This document shows, piece by piece, positions 12,778-47,816 of a stretch of 58,876 bases of DNA. The notes beneath the pieces were generated by a model. The model ran no database searches and was not told the origin of the DNA. It saw only the letters and a program-made list of their open reading frames with translations. The stretch's first letter is position 1, and every line of letters begins with the position of its first letter. A program made the position numbers and the translations under genes. Origin of the DNA: Chloroflexota bacterium (GTDB lineage: Bacteria > Chloroflexota > Dehalococcoidia > Lucifugimonadales > Australimonadaceae); contig JADFQE010000003.1 of NCBI GenBank assembly GCA_022561985.1, positions 1 to 58,876 on the forward strand, given 5' to 3'.

Positions 12778-12833
12778 CCGCAGCAGCGCGTGCCGCTTCA
12801 GTCCGGAGCCGGAGCAAAGCGTAGGCGCACAGT
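12778..12833. repeat. repeat family B, internally deleted copy
   Basis: It has the same 5' (..GCAGCAGCGCGTGCCGCTTCAGTCCGGAGCC) and 3' (GTAGGCGCACAGT) ends but lacks the central GTCCTTCGACAGGCTCAGGATGAGCGGAT segment. Confidence 0.65.
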
Positions 12834-12848
12834 TCTGGGAGGCAACCC

Positions 12849-18571: not shown

Positions 18572-19342
18572 CTACTCTTCTTCTTTCCAGAAGCGCTCTT
18601 CGATGAAGTTCCAGCCCTTCGGCTTCAGCCGGGCTTGGACGTCCTCGATCATGCCGGGGTTGCCGCAGAGGTAGACGACCGTGTCGTCCTTGGGCAAGCT
18701 CCACTTGGCCAGGTACTCCTCGACCAGCGTGTTGACGCGCCCGGTGGGACCGGCCCAGCTCCGGTTGCGCTCGGCGTTCGGACGGCTGACCGTCGTCACG
18801 TAGGTGACCGTGTCGGGGTGCTCGGCGGCGAGGCGCTCGAGCTCCGTGTCGTACACGAACTCGTCCTGGTGGCTGGCGCCCTCCATCACGAAGAACCGGT
18901 GGCCGCGGACGCCGTCCCGCTCGCTCTGGCGCAGGATGCTCACGAAGGGCGCGACCCCCGTGACCGTCCCCACCATCACGTGGTTGTGGTACTCGGACTG
19001 GAAGGTGAAGATGCCCTTCGCCTTGGGCCTCATCGACACCGACTCCCCCACGTGCATCTCCCACAGGAGGGGGGTCAGCTTCCCCCCGTACTCCGGCAGC
19101 ACGTACTCGACGAAGAGCTCGATGAGCTTCTCGTAGGGGGCCGAGGCGATCGAATAGGGCCGCTCGATGCCGCCCGTGCCGATGGTGATGTACTGGCCCG
19201 CCTTGAACGGGAACGGCACCTCCGGCCGGAGCCACATCAAGAACAGGTCCTCGCTGACCTCCTGCTTCTTGGCGACCCACGCCTTCGGCAGCTTGGCGAG
19301 GCGCTCCAACAGACGCGCCTGGCGCTCCGGATCGGTGGTCAT
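18572..19342 (-). CDS. ferredoxin-NADP reductase-family flavoprotein (FAD/NAD(P)-binding)
   Basis: RPYSIAS FAD motif, GTVTGVAPF NAD(P) motif and YLCGNPGM. The ATG overlaps the upstream stop (ATGA), with GGAGGA upstream. Confidence 0.8.
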   Translation of the reverse strand: MTTDPERQARLLERLAKLPKAWVAKKQEVSEDLFLMWLRPEVPFPFKAGQYITIGTGGIERPYSIASAPYEKLIELFVEYVLPEYGGKLTPLLWEMHVGESVSMRPKAKGIFTFQSEYHNHVMVGTVTGVAPFVSILRQSERDGVRGHRFFVMEGASHQDEFVYDTELERLAAEHPDTVTYVTTVSRPNAERNRSWAGPTGRVNTLVEEYLAKWSLPKDDTVVYLCGNPGMIEDVQARLKPKGWNFIEERFWKEEE

Positions 19343-22218
19343 TCGCCTTCCTCCTGATCGGGCTGGTCGGGCTCCTCGGGCTCCTCGGCTTCGATGCGCA
19401 CCGGCTGCGCGTTCAGCCGCGGTATGTGGTTCGTCGGGTCCGGGTGCTCCGAGGAGTCGACGGCGATCGCGAGCTCCCCGAAGAGCGTCGTGAGCGAGAC
19501 GACGCCGGGGAGCGCATCGTCGGAGACGCGCACGACCCCGCGCCTCGACGTGCCGTCCGCTGCCGCCGCGACCGCGCGCTGGCCGTCGGCGAGGCCGAGG
19601 TGCTCGGCGTCGGCGGCGCTCAGCACGAGCTCCTCGTCGCGCTCGATGCGGTTGCGGCCGCCGCTCGCCGCCACCTTCGCCGGCCGGCCCGGCTGCGCGA
19701 GCACGCGCCCGTGGGCGAGCAGCAGCGGGAAGCGCTCGTCGTCGTGCGCCGGGCGGGCGCGCCACGTGAGCACACCGAGGTGCGCCTTGGCATCGCGGAA
19801 CCCGTTCGCGTACAGGTCGGGCGTGCCGGGATCGGACCCCGACGCGCACGGCCACTGGATGCCGGTCCGCACCTCGCCGGAGTACATCACCTGGGTCGGC
19901 TGCGGGTTGTCGTTCGAGGGCTTCGGCACGCTGATGACCTGGACGCGGAGGCGCTCGGCGGAGATGCCGGCGTAGAGGGGAACCGCCTGCGCGATCTCAT
20001 CGAGCACCTGGTCCGGACCCTCGTACTCGAAGCCCGCCACGCCCATGCGCTCGGCGAGCGCGCAGAGCGTGTCGAGGTCGGAGCGCGCACGCACGCTCTT
20101 GTTCGTGAGCACGTGGCTCAGGAGCTGCACGCGCCGCTCGATGTTCGTGAAGGTGCCTGTCTTCTCCGCCCACTGGGACGCGGGCAGCACCACGTCCGCG
20201 TGGCGGGCGATGGGCGAGAGGAACCCATCGGTCACGACGAGGAAGCGCAGGCCATCGAGCGCCGCGGGAACGTCACCCAGGGTGCCGTCCTCGTAGTGGA
20301 CGTGGTCGCCCAGGAGCAGCATCGCGTCCAGGCCCCCGTTCCGGGCCGCGCTCAGCATCGCCCGGGCCCCCGCGCCCTTCGCCGCCGGGACCTCCGCGCC
20401 CCACAGCGCGCCGAGGCGGGCCCGCGCGTCGCCGTCGTCGATCGCGTCGTGCCCAGGCAGCGCGCCCGGCCACACGCCCATGTCCCAGGCGCCCTGGTCG
20501 TTGGCCCCGTGGAAGAGCGGGAAGATGCCCGCGCCGGGGACGCCGACGTTGCCCGTGAGCAGCGCCAGGTTGGCAACCGCGCGGGAGGCGGAGCGCCGCG
20601 TCCCGCCGGGCGAGCTGTCGAGGCCGTAGATGATCGCGGACGGGCCGCCGGTGGCATAGAGCCGGGCGGCCTCCTCGATGCGCTCGGACGCCACGCCGGT
20701 CTCGCGGGCGACCGCTGCCATCGTGAAGGGCGCGAGCGACTCCATGAGCTCGGCCCAGCCGTCGCAGCGCTCGTCGGCGAAACCGTGGTTCACGAGCCCC
20801 CCGTCCACGATCGCGCGCAGCATCCCGCCGAGCAGCGTCCCCTCCGTCCCCGGATGCGGCCGCAGCCAGAGGTGCGCGAAGCGCGTGAGCTCGACCTCCC
20901 GGTGGTCGATCACGATGAGCTTCTGCGTGCCCTCGCGGACGGCGCGCTTGATCGGGAGCGCGAGTATGTTCTGCTCCTCCGTGACGTTCGCGGCGACGGC
21001 AAGCACCACGGACGAGCGCTGCAGATCCCAGACGCTCATGCTCCCGGCGGAGTAGCCGAGCACGTCGCGCAGACCCTCCACCATGCCGGGCCGGTCGTTG
21101 GAGGCCACGTCCACGTTGTTCGAGCCCATCACGACCCGCGCGAACTTCTGGGCCGTATAGAGCTCCTCGTTCGTGTTGCGGGGGCCGGCGATGAGGCCGA
21201 AGCGCCCGCCCCGGTAGGGCGCGAGGCCTTCCGCCGCGGCCGCAAGCGCCTCCTCCCACGTCGCTTGGACAAGCTCCCCGTCGCGGCGGACCAGCGGGTG
21301 CTTGAGCCGGGACTTGTGGTTCACGTAGTCGAACCCGAACTTGCCCTTGAAGCAGGCCTGGCCCTGGTTCACCGGCGAGTTGAGCTCGGGGATGGCGCGG
21401 ACGACCCGCTCCCAGCCGTTGACCTCGTAGGTCATCGTGCAGCCCACGGGGCACTCGGCGCAGATCGACTGCTCTGTCCGCGCGGCCCGCTCCCACTTGT
21501 AGTCGCTCTCCGTGAGCGCGCCGACCGGGCACACGTCGATGCAGGCGCCGCAGAACTCGCACCCCGCCTCCAGGAGCGAGTCTCCCATGACCGTGCCCAC
21601 GAGCACCTGGCCCGCGCGCTCGGTCAGCGTGAGCGCGACGTCGCCGCGCAGCTCGTCACAGGCCCGCGTGCACCGCGCGCACACGATGCACAGGTTGTAG
21701 TCGCGGTCGTAGAAGGGGTCCTTCGTCTCGACCTGGAGCTCCCGGTACTGATAGGTCAGCGGCGAGGTCATCCCCTGGGGGTGGAACCGCGTCGTGTCCT
21801 TGAGCTCGCACCGCTCGTTCTTCGGGCACGTCACGCACCGGTCGGTGACGTCGACGTGGCGCAGGCAGATGTCCTGCGGGCCGCACAGGTCGACGCGGTG
21901 GCACGTGAGGCAGCCGTGGGGGTGCTCGGACAGCAGCAGGTCGAGGGTGGCGTCGCGCACGGCCACCGGCTTCTCGGCGTTCGTGTGCACGACCATGCCG
22001 TCGGCAACGGGCAGCGTGCACGATGCGAGGGTCGCCGTGCCGCGCGGGCCCTCGACGTCCACGACGCACATGCGGCAGGCGCCGTAGGGCTTCATGCCGG
22101 GGTGGTAGCAGAGATAGGGGATGTAGATGCCGGCGGCGTTGGCGGCTTCGAGCACCATCTGGTCCGCCGTCGCCCGCACCTCGCGGCCATCGATCGTGAT
22201 ACTCAGCTCATCAGGCAT
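19339..22218 (-). CDS. formate dehydrogenase alpha / NuoG-like molybdopterin oxidoreductase with an N-terminal 2Fe-2S and 4Fe-4S ferredoxin module
   Basis: ITIDGREV...YLCYHP...GACRMC, several Cys clusters, CAECPVGC and GQACFKGKFGFDYV. 959 aa with an acidic C-terminus. Confidence 0.8.
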   Translation of the reverse strand: MPDELSITIDGREVRATADQMVLEAANAAGIYIPYLCYHPGMKPYGACRMCVVDVEGPRGTATLASCTLPVADGMVVHTNAEKPVAVRDATLDLLLSEHPHGCLTCHRVDLCGPQDICLRHVDVTDRCVTCPKNERCELKDTTRFHPQGMTSPLTYQYRELQVETKDPFYDRDYNLCIVCARCTRACDELRGDVALTLTERAGQVLVGTVMGDSLLEAGCEFCGACIDVCPVGALTESDYKWERAARTEQSICAECPVGCTMTYEVNGWERVVRAIPELNSPVNQGQACFKGKFGFDYVNHKSRLKHPLVRRDGELVQATWEEALAAAAEGLAPYRGGRFGLIAGPRNTNEELYTAQKFARVVMGSNNVDVASNDRPGMVEGLRDVLGYSAGSMSVWDLQRSSVVLAVAANVTEEQNILALPIKRAVREGTQKLIVIDHREVELTRFAHLWLRPHPGTEGTLLGGMLRAIVDGGLVNHGFADERCDGWAELMESLAPFTMAAVARETGVASERIEEAARLYATGGPSAIIYGLDSSPGGTRRSASRAVANLALLTGNVGVPGAGIFPLFHGANDQGAWDMGVWPGALPGHDAIDDGDARARLGALWGAEVPAAKGAGARAMLSAARNGGLDAMLLLGDHVHYEDGTLGDVPAALDGLRFLVVTDGFLSPIARHADVVLPASQWAEKTGTFTNIERRVQLLSHVLTNKSVRARSDLDTLCALAERMGVAGFEYEGPDQVLDEIAQAVPLYAGISAERLRVQVISVPKPSNDNPQPTQVMYSGEVRTGIQWPCASGSDPGTPDLYANGFRDAKAHLGVLTWRARPAHDDERFPLLLAHGRVLAQPGRPAKVAASGGRNRIERDEELVLSAADAEHLGLADGQRAVAAAADGTSRRGVVRVSDDALPGVVSLTTLFGELAIAVDSSEHPDPTNHIPRLNAQPVRIEAEEPEEPDQPDQEEGE

Positions 22219-24007
22219 GCGGTGTGGCCTCCACTCCGGTGCCCACCGGCTCGCGGCTCGCGACGAAGTCCGCGTTCACGATGGCCGTGGGTGTTTCGCC
22301 ATCGAGCTGCGCGCCGCGCAGCGGGGCCCGTGGGCTCACGAGCGTGCCGAGGTCGCGCGCGGTTTCCCGGCTGCACTGGGCGGCGAACTCCTCGCCGAAG
22401 AACCGCACGGCCGAGGCGACCGGGTTGTAGCCGAGCTGACCGTGGCCGCAGAGCGAGCCCACCTTCATGTTCGCGCCGATACGCTCCATCAGCGCCAGGT
22501 CCTCCGGACGGCCCTCCCCGGCGCAGAGCCGGTCCAAGACTTCGAGCAGGTGGCTCGTCCCCAGCCGGCACGGGAAGCACTTGCCGCAGGACTCAAGCTG
22601 GTCGAAGGCGAGCAGGGTGCGGGTGAGGTCGACCACCGAGCGGTCCTCGTTGCAGACGATCAGTCCGCCCGATCCGAACATCGCTCCGGCCTCCGCCATC
22701 ACGTCGAGGTCGAGCACGATGTCGAGCTGGTCGACCGGCAGCACGCCGCCGAGGGGACCGCCCGTCTGGACGAACTTCAGCCGCTTCCCGGCCGGGTCTC
22801 CGCCGCCGCACTCCTCGACCACCTGGCGCATGGTCAGGCCGAAGGGCACCTCCACGAGCCCCGGATAGGCGATGTCGCCGGAGAGACACGCGATGGCCGT
22901 GCCGGGACTCTTCTCGGTACCGATGCTCCTGAACCACTCGGCGCCCCGGCGCACGATCTCCGGGACATAGGCCAACGTCTTGATGTTGTTGATGTTGGAC
23001 GGCTTGCCCCAGACGCCGAAGGCCGCGGGGAAGGGCGGGCGGAAGCGCGGCATCGACCGCTTCCCCTCGATCGCCTCCATCAGCGCCGTCTCCTCGCCGG
23101 CGACGTAGGAATCGCCGACCAGAGAGATGTCCATGTCGAAGGAGAAGTCGCTGCCCAGGATGTGTGGGCCCAGGAGGCCGTTGTCGTAGCACGCCGCGAT
23201 GGCGGCGCGCGTGCGCTCGATGGGGGAATCGTGGCCGTGGCGGATGAAGACGATGCCGTTGGACGCGCCGGTGGCGAACCCCGCGATGATGCATCCCTCG
23301 ACGAGGGTGAAGGGGTCGGCCTCGAGGATCGTCTTGTCGTTGAAGGCGCCGGGGTCGCCCTCCTCGGCGTTGCACAGGATGTACTTCTCGGGAGCCGGGT
23401 TGCCCGCGAGGAACCCCCACTTCACGCCGGTGGGGAAGGCGGCGCCACCGCGGCCCCGGAGCCCGGAGTCCTTGACCTCCTGAAGCACGCGCTCCGGGTC
23501 CAGCTCGGAGACGGCGCGGTCCAACCCCGCGAAGCCACCGCGCGCGACGTACTGGTCGATGTCGGCCGGGTCGATCTCGCCCGCGTTGCGCAGGGCGATC
23601 CGCTGCTGGAGGCGCATCATCGGGAGGTCCTCGCGCCGCGGCAGTCCGGGGTGGTCGGAGTCGACGGTGGCAAGCGCCAGCTCGACCACGGGGAAGCCGT
23701 TCTTGATGTGCCGCTCCACGATCTCCGGGATGTGCTCGGGGCCAACGTTGGCATAGAGCACGCGCGGCGTGGCCGGCACGTAGACGTCGACGAGCGGCTC
23801 GGCGAAGCACAGCCCGGTGGAGCCGACCTCCGAGACGGTGGCGTCGATCCCGGCCTGAGCGAGGTCGTGCCGGAGCGCGCCGAGCGTGTCGCGCGCGCCG
23901 GCAGCCATGCCGAGCAGCCCGGTGCTCACGCGGATCCAGGGCTTGCGGTGGAGGTCGGTCCACCGCCTGTTCCCGCGGATCTTGAGCGCATCGAACGCCT
24001 CACTCAT
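22211..24007 (-). CDS. NuoF/HoxF-like NAD(H)-binding FMN iron-sulfur subunit
   Basis: GLRGRGGAAFPTGVKW and ESCGKCFPCRLG motifs, with an N-terminal thioredoxin-like extension. It overlaps both neighbours by 8 nt. Confidence 0.85.
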   Translation of the reverse strand: MSEAFDALKIRGNRRWTDLHRKPWIRVSTGLLGMAAGARDTLGALRHDLAQAGIDATVSEVGSTGLCFAEPLVDVYVPATPRVLYANVGPEHIPEIVERHIKNGFPVVELALATVDSDHPGLPRREDLPMMRLQQRIALRNAGEIDPADIDQYVARGGFAGLDRAVSELDPERVLQEVKDSGLRGRGGAAFPTGVKWGFLAGNPAPEKYILCNAEEGDPGAFNDKTILEADPFTLVEGCIIAGFATGASNGIVFIRHGHDSPIERTRAAIAACYDNGLLGPHILGSDFSFDMDISLVGDSYVAGEETALMEAIEGKRSMPRFRPPFPAAFGVWGKPSNINNIKTLAYVPEIVRRGAEWFRSIGTEKSPGTAIACLSGDIAYPGLVEVPFGLTMRQVVEECGGGDPAGKRLKFVQTGGPLGGVLPVDQLDIVLDLDVMAEAGAMFGSGGLIVCNEDRSVVDLTRTLLAFDQLESCGKCFPCRLGTSHLLEVLDRLCAGEGRPEDLALMERIGANMKVGSLCGHGQLGYNPVASAVRFFGEEFAAQCSRETARDLGTLVSPRAPLRGAQLDGETPTAIVNADFVASREPVGTGVEATPHA

Positions 24008-24740
24008 CGGAGTCCGTCCCGTCGGCGTCAGGCTCCGCGCCGGCTTCGCCATCCGCGTCAGCGTCCGGGCTCTCGGCGTCGTCAGGCTCAGCGCCGGCCT
24101 CGGCTCCCGCGTCAGCATCTGCATCCGCGTCCGCCTCGGCGGCGGCTTCGGCTTCGGCTGCCGCCTCGGCTGCCACCAGAGCGGCAGCCGCCACGCGCGC
24201 GTCCCGCTCGGCCTTCACGCGCTCGGTCTCCGCTTCGAGGACCGCGCTCCTGCCCTCCTCGACGTCGCTGGCGAGCAGCAGGTCGATGTGGCGGACCGCC
24301 GTCTCACGCGTCGCCCGCCCGACGATCTCGTGGTCGAAGCTCGTGGCCGGGCCGTGGGGGCAGACGCCCAGGCAGGTGTTCAGCCGCAGCGTGAAGGTCC
24401 CATCGGGCGTGTCGCCCTCCCCATCGAGCCCGAGGCGCTCCATGACGCCACGGAGCAGCGGCTGCGCGCCGAGGATGTGGCACGCCGGTCCCCAGCAGAC
24501 CTCGACGGTGTGGCGGGCGGGGGGCGTGAAGCGGAAGTTGGGGTAGAAGGACGCGACGCCCCAGACCTCGTTGGTGCTGGCGCTCGTGCGCTGGGCTGTC
24601 TCGTCGATGGCCTCGGGCGGCAGGTAGCCGAGCTTGTCCTGCGCGGCGAGCAGCGACGAGAGGACCGTAACCACTCGCGCCGACTGGTCGGCGATGGCCT
24701 GACGGGCCTCCTCGCGCAAGCCCGTGGGAGTGGCCGTCAT
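24000..24740 (-). CDS. NuoE-like 2Fe-2S subunit with an acidic low-complexity tail
   Basis: The core contains VCWGPACH...CLGVCPHGP. The last 60 or so aa are Ala/Glu/Asp repeats. Confidence 0.8.
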   Translation of the reverse strand: MTATPTGLREEARQAIADQSARVVTVLSSLLAAQDKLGYLPPEAIDETAQRTSASTNEVWGVASFYPNFRFTPPARHTVEVCWGPACHILGAQPLLRGVMERLGLDGEGDTPDGTFTLRLNTCLGVCPHGPATSFDHEIVGRATRETAVRHIDLLLASDVEEGRSAVLEAETERVKAERDARVAAAALVAAEAAAEAEAAAEADADADADAGAEAGAEPDDAESPDADADGEAGAEPDADGTDSDE

Positions 24741-27469: not shown

Positions 27470-28579
27470 CTAAGCGGCCCCGGCGGGCTGGTAGCCCAGC
27501 TTGGGCAGCGCCTCTTTGAGCGCCGCGAGGACGTCGTCGATGTCCTCGGTGGAGACGTAGCCCATGTGGCCGATGCGGAAGACGCGCCCGGCGAGCAGGC
27601 CGCGGCCTTCGGCTGCGATGATGTCGTAGTCGTCCCGCAGCATGTTCAGCAGGTCCTCGTCCTTGATCCCCTCCGGCAGGTACGCCGCGGTGACGGTGTT
27701 CGAGGCGTACTTCTCCTCGGTGGCAACGAGCTTGAGCCCGAGCGCCTTCAGCCCGTCCCGGGTGTAGCGCGCGATCTTCTGGTGGAACGCGTAAACGGAC
27801 TCCATGTCGCCCTGGGCCAGCATCTGCTGGAGGGCGTGGTCGAGCCCGTACATCAGCGAGATGGCCGGCGTCCACGGCGTCTGCCCCAACCCGAAGGACT
27901 TCTTCGCCTCGGCGAGGCTGAAGTAGAACCTCGGCATCTTGGCCGTCTCCGACGCCTTCCAGGCGCGCTCGCTGAAGCTGATCATGGCGAGGCCCGGCGG
28001 GCACATCCAGCCCTTCTGCGAGCCCGCGATGACCACGTCGAGGTCCCAGGCGTCCACGGGCAGGTTGATGGAGCCGAGCGAGGAGATCGCGTCGACCAGG
28101 ATGAGCTTGTCGAACTCGCCCTTGACGATGGGCGCGATGACGCCGAGCTCGTTGGTGATGCCGGTGGACGTCTCGTTGTGGGTGACGAGCACCGTCGTGA
28201 CGGCCGGGTCGTCCTTGAGCGCCTGTCGGACCCGCTCGGGGTCCACCGCCTCGCCGTCCGGGAACTTCAGCACGTTCACGTCGGCGCCATAAGCCGTCGC
28301 GATTCGGGCGAAGCGGTCGCCGAAGTTGCCGACGGTGACCGCGAGCACGCGATCGCCGGGCGAGAGCGTGTTGACGATGGCCGCCTCCATGGCGCCGGTG
28401 CCGGAGGAGGTGAAGACGAAGATGTCGTTCTTCGTGAGGAACGCGCGCTGGAGGTTGGCGGTGATGCGCCTGAGCATCTCCGCGAACTCGGCGCCGCGGT
28501 GGTCGATCATCTGCTTGCTCATCGCCTCCACGACGTCCGGCGGGACGGGCGTGGGGCCGGGCAGGCGGAGGTTCGCCAT
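27470..28579 (-). CDS. class-V aminotransferase (serine-glyoxylate / phosphoserine aminotransferase-like)
   Basis: LPGPTPVPPDVVEAM..., SQKGW (PLP Lys). It lies directly upstream of serA, with AGGAGA upstream. Confidence 0.8.
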   Translation of the reverse strand: MANLRLPGPTPVPPDVVEAMSKQMIDHRGAEFAEMLRRITANLQRAFLTKNDIFVFTSSGTGAMEAAIVNTLSPGDRVLAVTVGNFGDRFARIATAYGADVNVLKFPDGEAVDPERVRQALKDDPAVTTVLVTHNETSTGITNELGVIAPIVKGEFDKLILVDAISSLGSINLPVDAWDLDVVIAGSQKGWMCPPGLAMISFSERAWKASETAKMPRFYFSLAEAKKSFGLGQTPWTPAISLMYGLDHALQQMLAQGDMESVYAFHQKIARYTRDGLKALGLKLVATEEKYASNTVTAAYLPEGIKDEDLLNMLRDDYDIIAAEGRGLLAGRVFRIGHMGYVSTEDIDDVLAALKEALPKLGYQPAGAA

Positions 28580-28712
28580 GGGTATCTCCTGAAGCTGGTC
28601 TGGTCTGCGGGGAGCCGGTCGTACGGGACTGCGTCGATTATACGGGCGGCGCTGGCGGGCCATCAATGGTCTGTGCGCAGATTCACAAACGGCCGGCACC
28701 CACGACCGTCCC

Positions 28713-29468
28713 CTAGCCGCGGGCGGCCGAGTACCCGATGAGGCCGGAGACGACGGCGCCCACCCCCGCCAGGAGCACGACGACGAGCGAGATGCGCCGG
28801 AACAGGGCGACCGCGATCCTCGGGGCGAGCCATATGCCGACCCCGACGCCGGCCAGGGCCCCCGGAAGCAGCACCAGCGAGAGCATGAGCACGTCGCGGG
28901 TGAGGATCCCGCCGATCGCGAAACTCGGCAGGGCGATCAGGTTCAGCACCTGGAAGTAGAAGACGAGGTTTGCCCGGAACTCCTTCGGGTCCACGCCCTG
29001 ATTGGCGAAGAAGAGGACGACGGGGGGGCCCGAGAGCCCCGTGGCGCCGCCGAGGAGTCCGCTGGCGGCGCCCACCGGTATCGAGGCGAGGCGCTCGTTC
29101 GATGCGGTGCGCTGGATGCCGAGCAGCATCCCCACCGACGTCACGCCGACCACGACGCCCATCACCACCCGGATGATCGCACCGTCGAGCCCGATGAGCA
29201 GCGCCGCTCCGACGGGCGTGAGCGCGGCGCCCGCAAGCACCAGTGCCCACACGCGCCGCAGGTTGATCCTCCGGTATCCGCCGATCAGGATGGCCGCGTT
29301 CAGCGCGACGCTCTGCAGCAGCATGACCGGGACGACGAGGGTTGGCTCGAGGTAGATCGTGAGCACCGGGGCGGCGACGATGACGAAGCCGAAGCCCGTG
29401 ACTCCCTGCACGAGGGCCGCCGCGAAGACGGCAACGGCGGAGACGAGGATGAGGGGCACGTCAACCAT
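28713..29468 (-). CDS. TauE/SafE (DUF81) family anion exporter membrane protein
   Basis: Polytopic membrane protein with the characteristic opening LVQGVTGFGFVIVAAP. Confidence 0.75.
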   Translation of the reverse strand: MVDVPLILVSAVAVFAAALVQGVTGFGFVIVAAPVLTIYLEPTLVVPVMLLQSVALNAAILIGGYRRINLRRVWALVLAGAALTPVGAALLIGLDGAIIRVVMGVVVGVTSVGMLLGIQRTASNERLASIPVGAASGLLGGATGLSGPPVVLFFANQGVDPKEFRANLVFYFQVLNLIALPSFAIGGILTRDVLMLSLVLLPGALAGVGVGIWLAPRIAVALFRRISLVVVLLAGVGAVVSGLIGYSAARG

Positions 29469-29523
29469 GCGGGATCGACCTTCAGGGGGTGGCGGTGAGC
29501 GGCAGGAAGTACCGGCGGCGGGC

Positions 29524-30291
29524 CTAGAGTATCTGCGACAGGAAGAGCTTGGTCCGCTCGTTCTGAGGGTCATCGAAGATCTGGGCCGGGGTCCCCGCTT
29601 CGAGGATCGTGCCCTCGTCGAACATCATCATGCGGTCGGCGACCTCCCTCGCGAACCCCATCTCGTGGGTGATCACGATCATGGTCATGCCGGAGGTTGC
29701 CAGCTCGCGCATGACGTCCAGCACCTCCTTGATCATCTCGGGGTCGAGCGCGGAGGTGGGCTCGTCGAACAGCATGATCTTCGGCTGCATGGCGAGCGCC
29801 CTGGCGATCGCGACCCGCTGCTGCTGTCCGCCGGAGAGCTGCGCGGGGTACTTGTCTGCTTGCTCCAAGATGCCAACGCGCTCCAGCAGCTCGGTGGCGG
29901 TCGCCTCCGCCTGGTCGCGGCTCCACTTCCGCACGCGTCTCGGCGCCAGCGTGATGTTCTGCATCACCGTGAGATGCGGGAAGAGGTTGAAGGACTGGAA
30001 GACCATGCCCACGTCGCGCCGGACCGCATCGATGTTGCGGATGTCGTGGGTGAGGGCCACGCCGTTCACGATGATCTCTCCCCGCTGGTGCTCCTCCAGG
30101 TGATTGAGCGTCCGGATGAAGGTGGACTTCCCCGACCCGGATGGACCGAAGACGACGACAACCTCCGCCTGATGGATGGTGACGTTGAGGCCGCGGAGCA
30201 CGTGGAAGTCGCCGAACCACTTGTGGACGTCCCGGCAGACGATGCTCTCGGGCGGGGTCTCTGCCTGAGTCTCGAGTGACTCGCTCGTCAT
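29524..30291 (-). CDS. polar amino-acid ABC transporter ATP-binding protein
   Basis: [24 protein letters not shown] and [13 protein letters not shown] motifs. Confidence 0.9.
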
Positions 30292-34262: not shown

Positions 34263-35450
34263 CTACCCCGGCTTCGGGCACCCGATGCCGAGGAAGTCCG
34301 TTTCCTCCATGAGGTATCCATCGTCGGGCGACACCGTCAGTGTCATTCCTGCGAACGCCTCGACGTTCTCGCGGAGCAGGTCTACGTTGACCAGCCGCCG
34401 CAGCTTCCCGGTCGTGTCGGCGGCCACCATCTGGAGCAGGATGCGCTGGATCACCACGTCGCCTGGGTGGAGTCCGTCTTTGAATTCGCACGACTCGAAG
34501 CCGAGTGAATCCGGGTCTAGGAAATCGATAAAGGGCAGCCCCAACCGGCGCACGGCACCTTCGATCTCGTCGAGATAAGCGTAGGCATCTCCTTTGGCGC
34601 GCATCGCCTCATAGACCTCCGGCGCCACCGGCGGCGAGAACGCCCAGATCTCGATGTCGTGCTCATCGAGGAAGCTCAGCAATTCCATGAGCGACGAGAG
34701 CCGCACCTCGCTGACGTGCGCCCCCGGCGCGAGGCGCTCGAGCCCATGCTCCACCTCCCGGAGCGTCCCCTGGAAGGGGGAGCCGCCGCTCGTGGGTTCT
34801 TCGAGCACCTCAGCCCCGTACTGGTACGACCCGTCGGGCCGGAACCCCGCAGCGCGCTGGACCGCCAGGATGCCGCTCAGGTTCCCCTCGGTGTACACGT
34901 TCCGAGGCTTCCCCGTGACGATCATCCAGAAGAACGAGGAGAGCGTGATCGTGCGGTTGCGGATGCCCTCCAGTGGAACGAGAAGCTTGCTGAGTGTGCT
35001 GGTCCCGGCTTCAGCGGTAACGGTCCTGACCGCGGCGTAAGCATCGTTGAACTCCCAGAAGTCGAGATCGAGCAGGACCGCTTCGGGGAGCCGCTCGCGG
35101 GGAAGGTCGAGCAGGAATCGTAGCGCGAGATCCGAATTCACCGTGGCGCCACCAGCATTGGTGAACGGGACAGTGAAGAACTCCTCCCTGAGCTGGAACG
35201 AGCGCGAGGAGCCCAGCGCGAGCAGCTCAGGCCGGCGCTGACGGACCAGCTCCTGCTTGTACGCGTACACGTCCCCATGGATAGCCGAGCCCCAGACCGC
35301 ATCCCTGGCCAACTGGGATTCCACGATCTCGCCGTAGCTCTTGAGCTCATCGGTCCGCCACAGATACCCCGCGCTCAACAGTCCGGGCACGACAAGCAGG
35401 CTGAGGGTCAGCACGTAGGTGCTGAAGTATGTCGAAAGATGGATTCTCAT
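34263..35450 (-). CDS. DltD/AlgJ-like membrane-anchored protein (partner of the MBOAT acyltransferase)
   Basis: N-terminal TM and an LALGSSRSF Ser motif resembling the DltD GSSE region. It lies directly downstream of the MBOAT gene. Confidence 0.55.
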   Translation of the reverse strand: MRIHLSTYFSTYVLTLSLLVVPGLLSAGYLWRTDELKSYGEIVESQLARDAVWGSAIHGDVYAYKQELVRQRRPELLALGSSRSFQLREEFFTVPFTNAGGATVNSDLALRFLLDLPRERLPEAVLLDLDFWEFNDAYAAVRTVTAEAGTSTLSKLLVPLEGIRNRTITLSSFFWMIVTGKPRNVYTEGNLSGILAVQRAAGFRPDGSYQYGAEVLEEPTSGGSPFQGTLREVEHGLERLAPGAHVSEVRLSSLMELLSFLDEHDIEIWAFSPPVAPEVYEAMRAKGDAYAYLDEIEGAVRRLGLPFIDFLDPDSLGFESCEFKDGLHPGDVVIQRILLQMVAADTTGKLRRLVNVDLLRENVEAFAGMTLTVSPDDGYLMEETDFLGIGCPKPG

Positions 35451-35474
35451 GCGCTATGTGTGACCGGCAGAAGG

Positions 35475-41392: not shown

Positions 41393-41547
41393 ACGCGTGT
41401 GCACCTGTGGGGTCTGCGGGGAGATGGACTCCTCAGTATACGGAGCCACCGGCCCCAGCGCTCCCTCGCGCTCCCCTTGAGCCCATCGCTGGCCGGCCGT
41501 AGAATCGGCGGGGGCCCGGCTCCAGCACGTCCCATGAGGAGGATCAC

Positions 41548-42195
41548 ATGCCGCAGCTCAAGGCAGACGTCTACTTCGACTTCCGCTGACCGTTCGTCTT
41601 CAATGCAGCCGTGTGGCTGGATATGGTCAAGGCGGCCCGCGGGGGCGAAGCGCCCATCGAGATCACGTGGAAGCCCTTCTCGCTCCAGCAGGTCAACCAG
41701 AAGGTCGGACCCGACTACCTGGCGTGGAACGAGCCGGACGAGGAGCTCCACCACAGCGTGTGGGGGCTGCGCGCGGGCGAGGCGGCGCGGCGCCAGGGCG
41801 AGGACGCGCTCCGGCGCTTCATGCCGTTCATCCTCGAAGCACGCCACGTGGAGCGCAAGGAGCTCAACGACAAGGAGCTGCTGAAGGGTCTCGCGGCCAA
41901 GGCTGAGCTTGATGTGGCACGGTTCGGGAAGGACCTGGACGACCGCTCGCTGCTGGATCTCATCGCCGCCAGCCACACCCATGCGGTCGAGGAGCTCGGC
42001 GTCTTCGGCACGCCGACCTTCGTCTTCGAGAACGGCGCGTCCGCGTTCCTCAAGATGCTCAAGCCCCGCACGCCGGAGGAGGCCGTCCGCTCCTTCGACG
42101 CGCTGATCCCCGTGCTGGAGGGCGAGGTCGCGGTCGGCGAGCTCAAGCGCCCGCAGCCGCCCTGGCCCAAGGGCATCTTTGATAAGACGCCCTAG
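41548..42195 (+). CDS. DsbA-like thioredoxin-fold protein with an in-frame TGA (41587-41589) at the N-terminal redox Cys position: Sec candidate or pseudogene
   Basis: GAGGAGG 7 nt upstream of the ATG at 41548. The sequence reads MPQLKADVYFDFR-TGA-PFVFNAAVWLDMV..., matching the 'FDf.CP' active-site strand of DsbA-family proteins. The frame is continuous with ORF 41611-42195. Confidence 0.7.
41606..41619 (+). other. weak SECIS-like hairpin downstream of the DsbA-like UGA
   Basis: CAGCC-GUGU-GGCUG. The loop starts 21 nt after the UGA. The stem extends by U-A and A-U pairs after a G.G mismatch. Confidence 0.25.
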
Positions 42196-42958
42196 GAGAC
42201 CGGCGGCCGGAGGCAAGACCAAGGCCGGCGGCGGGCCCGACTGGGCGGCGCTCGAGCGCGTCTTGGGCGTGCGCTTCAAGGACCGTGCGCTCCTGCGCCA
42301 AGCGCTGGTGCACCGGTCGATCCTCAACGAGCAGCGGGCCCAGAACCCACCTCAGGCCGCGGACGACCCCGGAAGCGAGCCGCTGGAGAGCTACGAGCGG
42401 CTGGAGTATCTGGGCGACGCGTTCCTGGGCTGGGTCGTCGCCCACGAGCTCTTCGTCCGCTGGCCCTCCTTCTCCGAGGGCGAGCTGACCCGTGCGCGCG
42501 CCTCGCTGGTGCAGGGCCGCACGCTGGCTGGGATCGCCCGGGGCATCGGACTCGGCGCCTACCTCCGCCTTGGCCAGGGCGAGGGCTCCACCGGCGGACG
42601 CGAGCGCACCTCGAACCTGGCGGCCGTCTTCGAAGCGGTGGTCGGCGCCGTCCTGATGGACCGCGGCGAGAAGGCGGCACGGGCGCTCGTGATGCGCCAC
42701 CTCGGCGCGCCGATGGACGCGATCGCCCCCTCCGGCGTCCCGCGGGATGCCAAGAGCGCCTTCCAGGAGCTGACGCAGCGCCTCGGCCTGCCGCTGCCCG
42801 CCTACGAGCTGCTGGCGGCGGACGGCCCTCCACACGCGCGCCGGTTCACGGTCCGGGTCCTCGTGGACGGCGTCCCCCGCGGCGAGGGCACCGGCGCCCG
42901 CAAGGCCGACGCGGAGCAGGCCGCCGCGGCCATCGCCCTCGACTCCCTCACTCCTTAG
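42179..42958 (+). CDS. rnc: ribonuclease III
   Basis: ERLEYLGDAFLG signature and a C-terminal dsRBD (AKSAFQELTQRLGLPLPAY...GEGTGARKADAEQAAA). The start is uncertain (TTG at 42179). Confidence 0.9.
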   Translation: MIRRPRRPAAGGKTKAGGGPDWAALERVLGVRFKDRALLRQALVHRSILNEQRAQNPPQAADDPGSEPLESYERLEYLGDAFLGWVVAHELFVRWPSFSEGELTRARASLVQGRTLAGIARGIGLGAYLRLGQGEGSTGGRERTSNLAAVFEAVVGAVLMDRGEKAARALVMRHLGAPMDAIAPSGVPRDAKSAFQELTQRLGLPLPAYELLAADGPPHARRFTVRVLVDGVPRGEGTGARKADAEQAAAAIALDSLTP

Positions 42959-43043
42959 CTCGGTGGTGAGTCCTGCGCCGCCGCGCGGGCGTACGGCCTT
43001 GTGAGCGCGCCCGAGCGGCTGTTACCATCGCCCCCGCGCACCG

Positions 43044-43126
43044 CCGGAGCAGCGCGTGCCGCTTGAGTCCGGAGCCGTCCTTCGACAGGCTCAGGATGAA
43101 CGGATAGGGGAGCAGAGGCGCACAGT
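43044..43126. repeat. repeat family B copy
   Basis: Near-identical to 12667-12749. It contains the first ATG of the ftsY ORF. Confidence 0.7.
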
Positions 43127-44153
43127 CAGCGGACTCTTTCGACTCTTCAGACGCAAGGAAAAGACCACCGATGCCCTCGCCAAGACGCGGCAGGGCTGGG
43201 GCGGCGGGCTCGGCGCGCTCTTCGGCGGCGGGTCCGGGGGGGACGACGCGTTCTGGGGCGGCCTGGAGGACGCGCTGATCTCCGCGGACGTGGGCGTCCC
43301 CACCTCGCTCGCACTGATCGAGCGCGTGCGGGAGCGGGTCCACGGCCGCTCGGCCTCGGACCGGGCTGCCGCCGCGGACGCGCTCAAGGACGAGCTTGCG
43401 CTTCTGCTGGACGTGGCCGAGCCCGCGTTGTGGGACTGGTACGACCAGGAGGAGCTACCGGCCAAGCCCATGGTCCTGCTGGTCGTTGGCGTGAACGGCG
43501 CCGGAAAGACGACGAGTATCGCGAAGATGGCGCACCACTATCAGGAGCTTGGCAAGACCGTGCTGCTGGGGGCGGGCGACACCTTCCGCGCGGCGGCCGT
43601 CGAGCAGCTCCGCGTCTGGGGCGAGCGCCTCGGGGCGGGCGTCGTGGCGCAGGCGCAGAACGCCGACCCGGGCGCGGTCGCCTTCGACGCCTACCAGGCC
43701 GCGGTGGCCCGCGGGGTGGACGTCCTCATCTTCGACACGGCGGGCCGGCTCCACAACAAAGCGCCGTTGATCGAGGAGCTGCGCAAGATCTGCCGCGTGC
43801 TCGGGCGCCAGGGATCGGGCGCGCCGCACCAGACCCTGCTCGTCCTCGACGCGACGACCGGGCACAACGGGCTCGAGCAGGCGCGCGTCTTCCAGGAGGC
43901 CGTGGGCGTCGACGGCGTCTTCTTGGCCAAGCTCGACGGCACGGCCAAGGGCGGGATCACCGTCGCCATCGCCGCGGAGCTCAAGCTGCCGGTCGTCTTC
44001 ATCGGCACGGGCGAGGGGATCGACGACCTCTCGCTCTTCGACGTCGACGACTTCGTCGACGCCCTCTTCGGCGGCGCCACGGCCGGGGACGCTCCGGCGG
44101 GGGACGGTCTGGCGGGGGACATGGGGGCCGGCGGCCAGGAGCCCTCCCGCTAG
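43056..44153 (+). CDS. ftsY: signal recognition particle receptor FtsY
   Basis: GVNGAGKTTSIAKMA, DTAGRLHNK and the LAKLDGTAKGG NG domain. The start is uncertain because the 5' end lies inside a repeat. Confidence 0.9.
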   Translation: MPLESGAVLRQAQDERIGEQRRTVSGLFRLFRRKEKTTDALAKTRQGWGGGLGALFGGGSGGDDAFWGGLEDALISADVGVPTSLALIERVRERVHGRSASDRAAAADALKDELALLLDVAEPALWDWYDQEELPAKPMVLLVVGVNGAGKTTSIAKMAHHYQELGKTVLLGAGDTFRAAAVEQLRVWGERLGAGVVAQAQNADPGAVAFDAYQAAVARGVDVLIFDTAGRLHNKAPLIEELRKICRVLGRQGSGAPHQTLLVLDATTGHNGLEQARVFQEAVGVDGVFLAKLDGTAKGGITVAIAAELKLPVVFIGTGEGIDDLSLFDVDDFVDALFGGATAGDAPAGDGLAGDMGAGGQEPSR

Positions 44154-44165
44154 GGCGGCGCAACC

Positions 44166-47100
44166 ATGGTTGACACCCTCACCTGGCTCCTCGCGCTCGA
44201 GCTCTTCAGCCTCGCCTCGTTCCCGCTGGCGTACCGGGTGTTCTCGCGCCTCCCGGAGCGCGGATGGGCCTTGAGCAAGCCGCTCGGCCTGCTGCTCGTC
44301 GGGCTCGGCACGTGGGGGATCGGGCTCACCCACCTCATCGTCAACTCGCGGCTGACCGTGGCGCTCGCGCTCGCGGTCGTGCTCCTGCTCTCGTGGCGAG
44401 CGGCCCGCGGCCGGACGGGGGAGATACGCGCCTTCCTCAAGGAGCACGCCAGCCTCGTGCTCTCCACCGAGCTGCTGTTCGTCGCCGTGTTCCTCGGGGT
44501 CGCGGCCCTGCGCGCGTCGGTGTCCGACATCGCCGGCACCGAGCAGCCCATGGACCTCATGTTCCTGAACGCGACGGTGACGAGCCCGTACTACCCGCCC
44601 AACGACCCGTGGCTCGCCGGCGAGGCCGTCTCCTACTACTACATGGGGTACCTGTTCATGGGCGCGCTGGCGCTCTTCACCGGCATCGCCACGCCCATCG
44701 CATACAACCTCGGGCTGGCCACGGCGGCCGCGCTCGGCGGCGTCGCGGCGTTCGGCCTGACGTTCAACCTGATCCGGCTCGCCCGCGGCTCGCACGACGG
44801 CGCGGTGCTCGGCGGGATCGCGGCGGTGTTCCTCCTGCTGGTCGCGAGCAACCTCGCCGGCGCGCTGGAGCTCGGCCGCGCGGCGGGAGCAGGCGGCGCC
44901 GCGTTCTGGGAGTGGGTGGGCATCAAGGACCTCACCGCGCCGGCCGCTCCCGCTTCGAGCTGGTACCCGGAGGAGTTCCGGTGGTGGTGGCGGGCGAGCC
45001 GCGTGTCGACGGTGCTGAACGGCCAGGAGCTCACCATCACCGAGTTCCCGATGTTCAGCTTCATCCTCGGGGATATGCACCCCCACGTGATGTCCATGGG
45101 CTTCTTCCTGCTTACCGCGGCGCTCGCGGTGCAGGCCTACCTGCTCCCGGACGCCCTGCGTGCGCGGACGCTGGTGCGCGAGTGGCCGCTCGCCCTCGCC
45201 GCCGTCGTCGCCGTCGGAGCGCTCGGCGCGATCAACCTGTGGGACCTGCCCATCGGGTTCGCCATGCTGACCGGCGCCCTCATGCTCAACGCCGCCCGTC
45301 ACGAGCGCACGATGCGCTTCGGCGCCGCCGTCGCCATGAGCGGTGGCACCACCATCGTCGGCGCGCCGCACGACCCGGAGGCCGCGCCGGCGGGGGGCTC
45401 CGCCTTCGTGTACGTCCGCGGTCCGAAGGGGTGGCGCCGCAACGCACGCCTGCGCCCGGCCGACCCGCACCCGGGCGCCGCGTTCGGCGCCGCCGTCGCC
45501 TTCGACGGCACGCTCGCCGTGGTCGGCGCGCCGTCCGCCGGTGCCGTCTACGTCTTCGCGCAAGCTGGCGGCCGGTGGTCCCTGCTCACGACCTTGCGCG
45601 CGCCCGTAGCGGCACTTGAGTTCGGGCGGTCCGTTGCCGTCGACGGCGGTCTGATCGCGGTCGGCGCGCGCCGGGCCGTCTACGTCTACGACGGGGGCGA
45701 GCGGACGTGGCCGCTCACCGCCGAGGTCGCGCCGGACGGCGTGAGCGACGGGTTCGGCTCCGCCGTCGCCCTCGAGCACCGGACGCTCGCCGTGGGGGAC
45801 CCGGGAGCGGACGGCGGATGCGTTCACGTGCTCACGCGCCGGGGCGTGTCCGCCTGGACCCCCTCGGCCCGGCTCACCGGCCCCGCGGGCGCGTTCGGGC
45901 GGAGCGTCTCGATGAGCGACGGGCTGCTCGCCGTCGGCGCCGAAGGGACCGCCGTCGTCTTCGAAGCCGGGCCCAGAGCGGGTGCGCGGGCGCGGACGTG
46001 GAACGAGCAGGCGGTGGTCCGAGCGCCGGGCGCGCGGAGCGTCGCCTCCTTCGGCGCAGCGGTTGCCATCGGCCAGCGCTACCTGGCGGTGGGGGCACCG
46101 GAGGCCCACAACACCGCTCCGGGCTCCGGAGCCGCCTACATCTACGAGCGGGAGCGGGCCGGGCCGGCGTGGCCCCTCCACGCCGCGCTCGCCGGGGCCG
46201 ACGCCGGGGCGGACGCGCGGTTCGGGAGCGCCGTGACGATCGACGGCGACACCGTCGTGGTGGGCACGCCGGGGATCGGACACGGCGCGGTCCACATCGT
46301 CGACCGCGTGCTGGATGCCTGGAAGCCCGGCTCGAAGCTGATCGCCCGGTGGCGGTTCGGGCGCTCGTTGCTCGCCGTCGCGCTGCTGGGCGCGGCGGTC
46401 CTGGTCTTCCTCGCGCCGTTCCTCGCGACCTTCGAGAGCAACGCCGGCGGCATCCTGCCGCTGCGCGCGCTGCTCACGCGCCCGGTGCACCTGCTGTTGA
46501 TATGGGGGGTCTCCGCGTTCCTGGTGCTGCCCGTCTTCTTCCTTGCGATGGGGTCGGTCTTCCGGCGCGGCAACTGGAGCCTCATGCGCTTCGGGGTCGC
46601 TCTCTTCATCGGGTTCGGGCCCGTGGCGCTCTGGCTCCAACCGGTCTGGGGCCCACCCTTCTTCGTCGTCGCGCTGCTGTTCAACGGTCTGGTGGTGATG
46701 CTGTTCGGCCTCCACCGGGCCGGGTTCCGGCTTCCCCGGGCCGACGAGATGGTGTTCGCCTTCAACAGCGGCGTGACGCGCGTCGTCGGCACGCTCCTGC
46801 TGGTCGGGCTGCTCATCGGCGACGGCGTCCTGCACGGGGAGCGCGGGATCGACGGCCGGTTCCTTGCCGTCGACCGCCTCCTCATCGTCGTGCCGATGGC
46901 GGCCATCGTTGCGCTCTCCGTCTACGGCGCGTGGACGTTGGCGCACCGCGACAGCGAGGCCGCCCGCTCGGGCGAGGCCGGTGCCACACGGGGCCGGAAC
47001 GACGGCATCGTGCCCGTGCTGCTGCTCCTCGCGGTCGGCGCGGCACTCATCATGGGCACCGAGCTGTTCCACGTCTGCGACACGTTCTGCGGCGGCGGCG

Positions 47101-47816
47101 ACGGCATCCTCCGGCGCCTCAACACCGTGTTCAAGCTGTACTACCAGGCGTGGCTGCTCATGGCCGTGCTCGGGGGGTTCGGCCTCTGGTACGTGGCCGG
47201 CCGCTGGAACAGGCGCGTGCTCTGGGGGCGCGTGGGCGTCACCGCGTGGGCCGGCGTGCTCGTGATCGGGCTGGGGGCGGTCGGCTACTACCCCCTGGCC
47301 GCGGTCACCACCAGGGCGAATGACGGCACCGGGCTCGGCCTCGACGGCCAGGCGTACCTGCTCCGCTCGGCGCCCGACGAATACCGGGCCATCCAGTGGA
47401 TCAAGGAGAACACGCCCCGGGACGCGGTGGTGATCGAATCGCCCGTGGCGCCATGCGCCGGCGACCCCGCCGGGTGCAGCTCCTACGTCACGGAGGCCGC
47501 CCGGATCTCGGGCAGCACGGGCCGGCCAACGGTGATCGGCTGGATCGGACACGAGCGGTTCTGGTGGCGGGCGGAGGGCCGCCACGACATCGACGGGCGG
47601 GTGGCTGATGTCCGGACGATCTACGAGACCGAGGACGAAGCGCTGGCCCGCGAGCTGCTCGATCGCTACGACGTCTCCTACGTGGTCGTCGGCGGGCGCG
47701 AGCGGGACATCTACGGCGAGGCGGGGATGACCAAGTTCGGCAGGATGGGCACGCCCGTGTTCGGCCTGGGGGCCGGAGTGACCATCTACCAGGTCTCCGG
47801 CGGAGGGGCGTCCTGA
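44166..47816 (+). CDS. DUF2298 / Chlor_Arch_YYY polytopic membrane protein with an inserted FG-GAP-like repeat domain
   Basis: The SYYYMGY motif, many TM segments, and seven FGxxVAxxGxxxxVGAP...VYV repeats at aa 384-715. Confidence 0.8.
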   Translation: MVDTLTWLLALELFSLASFPLAYRVFSRLPERGWALSKPLGLLLVGLGTWGIGLTHLIVNSRLTVALALAVVLLLSWRAARGRTGEIRAFLKEHASLVLSTELLFVAVFLGVAALRASVSDIAGTEQPMDLMFLNATVTSPYYPPNDPWLAGEAVSYYYMGYLFMGALALFTGIATPIAYNLGLATAAALGGVAAFGLTFNLIRLARGSHDGAVLGGIAAVFLLLVASNLAGALELGRAAGAGGAAFWEWVGIKDLTAPAAPASSWYPEEFRWWWRASRVSTVLNGQELTITEFPMFSFILGDMHPHVMSMGFFLLTAALAVQAYLLPDALRARTLVREWPLALAAVVAVGALGAINLWDLPIGFAMLTGALMLNAARHERTMRFGAAVAMSGGTTIVGAPHDPEAAPAGGSAFVYVRGPKGWRRNARLRPADPHPGAAFGAAVAFDGTLAVVGAPSAGAVYVFAQAGGRWSLLTTLRAPVAALEFGRSVAVDGGLIAVGARRAVYVYDGGERTWPLTAEVAPDGVSDGFGSAVALEHRTLAVGDPGADGGCVHVLTRRGVSAWTPSARLTGPAGAFGRSVSMSDGLLAVGAEGTAVVFEAGPRAGARARTWNEQAVVRAPGARSVASFGAAVAIGQRYLAVGAPEAHNTAPGSGAAYIYERERAGPAWPLHAALAGADAGADARFGSAVTIDGDTVVVGTPGIGHGAVHIVDRVLDAWKPGSKLIARWRFGRSLLAVALLGAAVLVFLAPFLATFESNAGGILPLRALLTRPVHLLLIWGVSAFLVLPVFFLAMGSVFRRGNWSLMRFGVALFIGFGPVALWLQPVWGPPFFVVALLFNGLVVMLFGLHRAGFRLPRADEMVFAFNSGVTRVVGTLLLVGLLIGDGVLHGERGIDGRFLAVDRLLIVVPMAAIVALSVYGAWTLAHRDSEAARSGEAGATRGRNDGIVPVLLLLAVGAALIMGTELFHVCDTFCGGGDGILRRLNTVFKLYYQAWLLMAVLGGFGLWYVAGRWNRRVLWGRVGVTAWAGVLVIGLGAVGYYPLAAVTTRANDGTGLGLDGQAYLLRSAPDEYRAIQWIKENTPRDAVVIESPVAPCAGDPAGCSSYVTEAARISGSTGRPTVIGWIGHERFWWRAEGRHDIDGRVADVRTIYETEDEALARELLDRYDVSYVVVGGRERDIYGEAGMTKFGRMGTPVFGLGAGVTIYQVSGGGAS

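Follow-up and report, generated by a model that had tools for sequence, protein, structure and literature searches.

Does the TGA triplet at positions 41587-41589 end a short reading frame, or is it read as selenocysteine (Sec) within a longer gene for a DsbA-like protein? The question is raised by one locus in the 58,876-nucleotide stretch of DNA that was analysed here (hereafter, the window). There, a mechanical list of open reading frames (ORFs) includes a 194-residue ORF that begins at a GTG codon at position 41611, in the same frame as an ATG codon at position 41548 from which it is separated by the TGA. As considered below, comparison of this locus with its relatives favors, with a probability of about 0.9, the reading that positions 41548-42195 correspond to a bona fide bacterial selenoprotein gene that is absent from the annotation.

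The reading frame and its in-frame TGA

Translation from the ATG at position 41548 yields 13 sense codons (MPQLKADVYFDFR), then the TGA and then PFVFNAAVWLDMV, with the frame remaining open until a TAG at positions 42193-42195. The full selenoprotein gene would thus occupy positions 41548-42195 of the + strand and comprise 215 codons, with Sec as codon 14, and the TAG stop. The GTG at positions 41611-41613 (+), although the start of the mechanically listed ORF, is a Val codon within the loop of a SECIS-like hairpin and not a real start. A ribosome-binding site (RBS), GAGGAGG, was read from the sequence at positions 41536-41542 (+). A preliminary description of the locus had given the same ATG, TGA and shared frame, and these coordinates were confirmed; the RBS that it reported is likewise present, with a spacer to the ATG of 5 nt, and not of 7 nt as stated there.

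When the TGA was read as Cys, the translated product matched the Pfam DSBA family (PF01323) with an E-value of 4.3e-13 and a score of 49.9 bits, relative to a cut-off of 25.6. The match covers residues 7-163 (profile positions 3-175), spanning the active-site strand and helix. As it starts at residue 7, the DSBA domain begins upstream of the TGA. By contrast to Pfam, NCBIfam contains no model that recognizes the window protein, the only match being one of 12 bits to a seleno-lipoprotein family, below the cut-off. The N-terminal peptide around the predicted Sec reads KADVYFDFR-U-PFVFNAAVWL, such that the tryptic peptide across residue 14 would be (K)ADVYFDFR-U-PFVFNAAVWLDMVK. The protein contains no Cys at all, and no signal peptide was found in it, with strand beta-1 beginning at residue 6. 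The putative Sec codon (41587-41589, +) specifies residue 14, at the N-terminus of helix alpha-1, corresponding to the position of the nucleophilic Cys of the thioredoxin fold.

Conservation of the TGA and the Cys forms of the family

A search of 5.8 billion proteins returned approximately 1,000 relatives of the window protein, the best 120 cluster representatives of which were examined. In addition, one genome per GTDB species was scanned, revealing 449 loci with a relative. The best 80 of these 449 loci, all from Dehalococcoidia, SAR202 or other Chloroflexota metagenome-assembled genomes (MAGs), were kept, and in most of them, residues 1-212 could be aligned by tblastn. The window sequence, together with the 79 of these loci that include the N-terminus, made up the 80-sequence set considered here. 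In each of the 80 sequences, encompassing relatives down to 44% identity, TGA was found at the column in question; neither TAA, TAG nor a sense codon was seen. Chance would not produce anything close to this degree of conservation. The peptide is, moreover, preserved on both sides of the TGA, with the consensus being ...KADVY[FY]D[FY]x-TGA-P[FY]V[FYW]NAAVWL.... A start codon is found exactly 13 codons before the TGA in 74 of the 80 sequences (ATG in 72), with an RBS-like motif preceding the equivalent start in 78. The 12 codons upstream of the TGA vary mainly at the third position (variability of 0.22, 0.29 and 0.41 by codon position), namely, in the pattern expected of coding sequence.

The N-terminus is covered by just three of the best 120 cluster representatives, namely, P0013, P0085 and P0104. 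In these, the TGA column is occupied by Cys (DFHCPFVW, DYRCPFVY and DYRCPFVY, respectively). Among 1.84 billion representatives, searched exhaustively with HMMER, 725 relatives were identified, and all 74 Cys-form N-termini that were recognized present C-P-[FYW]-x at the TGA column, mostly without a second Cys. As such, the family is one of 1-Cys 'CPxx' DsbA-fold proteins, with UGA replacing the Cys codon in the Dehalococcoidia clade. The assignment of the UGA to the nucleophilic Cys position in the preliminary description is therefore supported by the three representatives and the 74 Cys forms alike, while the alignment of Cys and TGA forms that it proposed as a check gave TGA in all 79 closest representatives and Cys in orthologues.

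Examination of the region downstream of the TGA-containing gene in the window revealed genes encoding RNase III (42179-42958), FtsY (43056-44153) and a DUF2298 membrane protein with FG-GAP repeats (44166-47816), all on the + strand, such that the group spans positions 41548-47816. The same order, namely, DsbA-like, RNase III, FtsY and DUF2298, was found for P0013, from SAR202, and for P0085. The Cys forms that share this dsbA-like > rnc > ftsY > DUF2298 synteny, with P0104 also counted among the syntenic orthologues, are true orthologues. In 81 of 83 loci (L001-L083), RNase III is encoded by the very next gene downstream, in the same orientation. The four-gene order is deeply conserved, with a functional link between the products not being evident.

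Several family members of unusual form were also noted. P0108 (209 residues, encoded on a 1.76-Mb contig) possesses an odd N-terminus (...LWDVTAVPCVYNAAMWL), where the usual column holds neither Sec nor Cys and a Cys is found two residues later; the copy may have degenerated, its active site may have shifted or a frameshift may have arisen locally. P0188 (833 residues) and P0228 (1196 residues) each contain 5-6 separate matches to the DsbA-like domain and appear to be tandem multi-domain versions of that domain.

A SECIS-like hairpin and the decoding of UGA

A SECIS-like hairpin is found at positions 41603-41622 (+), within the codons for N-A-A-V-W-L-D. Its core stem is formed by the pairing of CAGCC (41606-41610) with GGCUG (41615-41619) around a GUGU loop (41611-41614), and is extended by two outer A-U pairs. 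The core is encoded by the A-A-V-W-L codons GCA GCC GTG TGG CTG, and the loop starts 21 nt after the UGA; the core pairing and this spacing are as previously described. In the published bSECIS model (PMC13188914, Fig. 2), the apical loop comprises 3-9 nt with a G within the first two positions, the upper stem includes at least 4 bp, the spacing from the UGA is 16-37 nt and the MFE is -7.5 kcal/mol or lower. The window hairpin, with its GUGU loop, 5-bp stem, 21-nt spacing and MFE of -10.2 to -16.6 kcal/mol, depending on the flanks included, falls within all four limits. The hairpin core is short, at 5 bp. A 46-nt fold has an energy of -16.6 kcal/mol and a z-score of -2.3 relative to shuffled sequences; for a 64-nt fold, the z-score is -0.89, such that stability is not significantly above that of shuffled sequences.

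When RNAalifold was applied unaided to the 80-sequence alignment, a trivial 3-pair structure was obtained and the hairpin was missed. The hairpin was judged by pair counts on the named structure and by synonymous-site statistics. In the 72 distinct sequences of the 80-sequence alignment, each of the five core pairs is a standard pair in 82-100% of cases, while across all 8 hairpin pairs, 73% of cells are paired, as compared to no more than 50% in any slid register. Several hairpin variants are compensatory or wobble-preserving (L013, L031, L032/L034 and L041), with true compensatory covariation being sparse because the sequence is so conserved.

The strongest evidence for a SECIS is the constraint seen at synonymous sites, where the wobble positions of the stem-loop are frozen while those of the flanks vary freely. 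Third-position variability is 0.13 in the five stem-loop codons, as compared to 0.38 and 0.49 in the flanking codons. The first Ala is encoded by GCA in 61 of 80 sequences (76%), as opposed to 13% of the Ala codons elsewhere in the same genes and 4% in the genes of the window. Likewise, the second Ala is encoded by GCC in 73 of 80 sequences (91%, relative to a background of 42%) and the Leu by CTG in 64 of 80 (80%, relative to 43%). The SECIS check put forward in the preliminary description thus yields both agreement with the published model and strong synonymous-site constraint. At the protein level, the peptide [AS]A[VM]W[LF] is found in 71 of 80 Sec forms and in only 4 of 74 Cys forms, while in two of the three Cys orthologues, the hairpin is lost (fold z-scores of +0.13 and +0.60, as compared to -2.30 for the window). 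At the locus of the Cys orthologue P0104 (L088, positions 235-864), GCT GCC TTG TGG CTG follows the TGC, and four of the five SECIS stem pairs are kept; this may represent a recent Sec-to-Cys conversion.

Components of the Sec-decoding machinery were also sought. Rfam at gathering thresholds and ARAGORN, applied to the 58.9-kb window, detected only tRNA-Lys and neither tRNA-Sec nor a SECIS family, and a Pfam scan of approximately 30 window ORFs did not reveal SelA, SelB or SelD. As the window corresponds to some 2% of the genome, this is expected. Earlier reports speak to the lineage. In BSepDB, two Dehalococcoidia MAGs are among the ten bacteria richest in selenoprotein genes, with 49 and 46 (PMC13326102), many Chloroflexi, Dehalogenimonas among them, are on record as having SelA, SelB and SelD (PMC5029168 supplement), and the SelA and SelB COGs co-occur in the majority of sponge-symbiont bins (PMC5649159).

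The window contains a second gene with such a TGA, as had been claimed in stating that two UGAs at redox Cys positions lie within 36 kb of each other. A rhodanese gene at positions ~5917-6747 (-), matching PF00581 with an E-value of 5e-33 when U is read as C, includes an in-frame TGA (6046-6048) where the CxxGxR loop (VHVY-U-QGGIRA) would hold its catalytic Cys, 35.5 kb from the TGA of the DsbA-like gene. A 7-bp hairpin follows, with its GGC loop 17 nt after this UGA, and the protein corresponds to the selenoprotein type catalogued as 'rhodanese form 2, UxxG'. From the lineage and this second TGA-containing gene, we infer that the source organism probably decodes Sec. In a crude scan of the window, the only further in-frame TGAs with coding-like GC3 flanks were at 29564 (+) and 14309 (-); both are antisense to well-supported genes and are likely to be artefacts arising from a GC content of 70%.

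Genes of related interest were seen elsewhere. On the contig encoding P0272, a Molybdop_Fe4S4 gene (154 residues) followed directly by a Molybdopterin gene (819 residues) lies beside a gene for a CoaE-DsbA-like fusion; this split being usual for formate dehydrogenase with Sec, the organism in question probably decodes Sec despite the Cys in its DsbA-like domain. In the window itself, positions 19339-22275 (-) encode a Fer2_4, Fe4S4 and Molybdopterin oxidoreductase (FdsA/Nqo3-like) and positions 22211-24214 (-) a Nuo51-like FMN subunit, both in uninterrupted ORFs without a TGA; if the former is a formate dehydrogenase, it is thus not of the Sec type. A class-V aminotransferase of the cysteine desulfurase/selenocysteine lyase superfamily adjoins a TauE/SafE sulfite-exporter family protein (27470-28936 and 28713-29624, respectively, both -). 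Finally, ORFs of 336 and 396 codons with coding-like GC3 at positions 12825-13835 (+) and 34263-35453 (-), respectively, gave no Pfam match at E <= 1e-5.

Three other readings of the TGA can be weighed against this evidence. The first is that the UGA is recoded to Cys or another standard residue, either by a Cys-charged tRNA-Sec-like tRNA acting with a SelB-like factor or by near-cognate read-through. The inserted residue is not decidable from sequence alone, all non-TGA relatives present Cys at the column and the window holds no Sec machinery, each of which would be compatible with such recoding. Nonetheless, the hairpin fits the SelB-type bSECIS consensus, the lineage is rich in selenoproteins and includes Chloroflexi with SelA, SelB and SelD (PMC13326102; PMC5029168), and the second TGA, in the rhodanese gene, occupies a classic selenoprotein position. 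Moreover, TGC or TGT would be a simpler means to specify Cys, yet 80 of 80 sequences retain TGA while nearby wobble sites are saturated. Recoding to Cys is, as such, very improbable.

Slightly less probable still is the second reading, namely, that the TGA is a genuine stop that ends a 13-residue leader peptide, with the functional protein beginning at the GTG at 41611 or at an ATG at 41623. This is how every public annotation treats the gene, and in-frame start codons are indeed present just past the TGA. Starting downstream would, however, remove the active-site residue, as the preliminary description had held, as well as strand beta-1, and the Pfam domain extends from residue 7. Public gene calls predict products of 190-197 residues, named 'DsbA family protein' or 'hypothetical protein', the starts of which differ between genomes and fall just after the TGA column (MYNAAVWL, MFNAAVWL, MWLD, MVKA and MGGE). 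Such assorted starts are the signature of gene callers restarting past a stop, whereas the upstream ATG and RBS are found at a fixed distance of 13 codons. The upstream peptide, moreover, is conserved with a coding pattern and, in the syntenic Cys orthologues, runs unbroken into the remainder of the protein. Where homologues start, also raised earlier as a point to be checked, is thus not at the equivalent of 41611, given the upstream homology seen by tblastn, the ATG at -13 codons and the conserved RBS-like motif.

The third reading, that TGC or TGT, each one base away from TGA, was altered in the window only, whether in a pseudogene or through an error of sequencing or assembly, is effectively refuted, since the gene shows no other disruption and evolves under purifying selection, and since the TGA is found in 79 other species-level genomes and in four independent metagenome assemblies (three 99.2-99.3% and one 91% identical to the window), which excludes a window-specific error.

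The predicted selenoprotein and known systems

The syntenic Cys orthologue P0013, as modeled by AlphaFold, served in place of the window protein for structural comparison. In the model (pLDDT 91.9; pTM 0.87), Cys19 is found between a strand (residues 9-15) and a helix (residues 20-35), the canonical position of the nucleophile, and each of the best matches in the PDB has the DsbA fold, comprising a thioredoxin fold with an inserted helical domain. The invariant F-G-T-P-T-F sequence probably corresponds to the cis-Pro loop, opposite Sec14. With no Cys in the window protein, nor downstream of the TGA column in 101 of the 120 closest homologues (the best 120 of ~1,000), Sec would be the sole redox residue. 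The U-P-F-V motif proposed in the preliminary description accordingly stands, with the correction that it offers a single Sec without a resolving Cys.

Based on these features, a mechanism can be proposed. Translation would start at the ATG at position 41548, and the hairpin at 41603-41622, 14-33 nt downstream of the UGA, would recruit SelB carrying Sec-tRNA(Sec), such that the UGA at 41587-41589 would be decoded as Sec by SelB delivery. The product would be a 215-residue cytoplasmic DsbA-fold protein with Sec14, as part of U-P-F-V, at the N-terminus of helix alpha-1. The selenolate of Sec14 could attack an oxidised sulfur (a disulfide, mixed disulfide or sulfenate), yielding a selenenyl-sulfide. 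As the protein lacks a resolving cysteine, the selenenyl-sulfide formed with such a substrate would need to be resolved by an external thiol, be it a low-molecular-weight compound or part of a partner protein. The mechanism would thus probably be monothiol and similar to that of mycoredoxin or Rv2466c, rather than involving DsbA-type disulfide donation. Mycothiol is not known to occur in Chloroflexota.

Coenzyme A might conceivably serve as the thiol partner, with the leads being protein fusions and the 'crotonase' name carried by a reference selenoprotein considered below. In P0125, P0126 and P0156 (~415 residues), dephospho-CoA kinase (CoaE, PF01121) is fused to a Cys-form DsbA-like domain. 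A coaE gene was found adjacent to the DsbA-like gene neither in the window nor in any of the 83 loci, and so, the gene-context case for coenzyme A comes from the fusions only.

Every public gene call of this family in Dehalococcoidia/SAR202 is shortened, with the active site being lost, and NCBIfam holds no model for the family. As a result, the gene is overlooked when selenoproteins are counted, or functions inferred, for this lineage, which is abundant in marine and subsurface settings. Sec as the only catalytic residue, fixed in 80 of 80 sequences beside rnc and ftsY, would imply a standing selenium requirement. The gene also provides a clean case of a SECIS constraining the amino acid sequence of the helix that it encodes.

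Of proteins with a solved structure, DR2335 of Deinococcus radiodurans (PDB 7DK9; C24S mutant, 7DKA) is the best match to the predicted selenoprotein, both by sequence and by structure. In the sequence alignment (E-value of 9.3e-14; residues 6-204), FDFLCPYAW of DR2335 is aligned to FDFRUPFVF, such that Cys24 corresponds to Sec14, while comparison with the P0013 model gave TM-scores of 0.78-0.80. Both DR2335 and the window protein present a single active-site residue, no CxxC motif, no signal peptide and a C-terminal ...RRP.P tail, although DR2335 relies on Cys instead of Sec and shares only ~25% identity with the window protein. DR2335 is listed without functional or expression data (PMC8945050), and no functional paper on it was found; hence, there is no function to transfer. 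The gene provides an entry point to what the DR2335-type single-Cys DsbA-like proteins, as yet uncharacterised, do in the cell.

Knowledge of DsbA-like selenoproteins dates back to analysis of the Sargasso Sea, where form 1, of the COG2761/FrnE type, was described as containing UxxC (PMC1088965). Form 1 and the window protein share the DsbA fold and Sec as the residue that opens the active-site motif, with a SECIS following closely. They differ in that form 1 includes a resolving Cys, whereas the window protein presents U-P-F-V and no Cys anywhere. With this motif and no Cys, membership in the classical DsbA/FrnE dithiol C/U-x-x-C group was rejected. The preliminary description, in speaking of a DsbA/FrnE-type entry into the active site, was hence correct as to the DsbA fold (PF01323) but not as to FrnE, the closest relatives being 1-Cys proteins of the DR2335 type. 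Indeed, in addition to the difference in motif, the structural match to the FrnE type is much weaker (TM-score of ~0.6; rmsd >13 A). A 'DsbA-like protein form 2' also appears in a 2026 review, which attributes it to Peng et al. 2016 (PMC13188914), being defined by PF01323 and the motif DxxUP, with the reference member, MDP6049977.1, being named 'crotonase/enoyl-CoA hydratase'. The PF01323 match and the D-F-R-U-P sequence (residues 11-15) of the window protein fit form 2, as judged by family and motif.

Rv2466c of Mycobacterium tuberculosis, a mycothiol-dependent reductase (PF22234), is the second-best structural match (TM-score of 0.66-0.71). Like the predicted window protein, it is cytoplasmic and DsbA-like; it works with a low-molecular-weight thiol, and its motif, CPWC, is unlike that of the window protein. 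Precomputed PF22234 matches exist for some orthologues. Still, the window protein itself gave no PF22234 match at E <= 0.1 and lacks the second Cys, and so, was not assigned to the Rv2466c-like group. Kappa-class GST and 2-hydroxychromene-2-carboxylate (HCCA) isomerase present the same overall fold and share the N-terminal layout of strand, catalytic residue and P-[FY], with the catalytic residue being Ser rather than Cys or Sec. Although some JGI records label family members as HCCA isomerase, this assignment was rejected given the motif and the weaker fit (TM-score of 0.57-0.60; rmsd of ~8-10 A).

It is rather doubtful, if conceivable, that the gene defines a distinct and uncurated selenoprotein family, combining a DR2335-type 1-Sec DsbA fold, near-fixed Sec in SAR202/Dehalococcoidia, location in an rnc-ftsY cluster and possibly a coenzyme A partner. 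Given its fit to form 2, the gene is instead a genuine selenoprotein gene that belongs to a general type already known, and a fairly ordinary one, with its interest lying in Sec being nearly fixed throughout a class, in single-Sec chemistry and in the gap in annotation.
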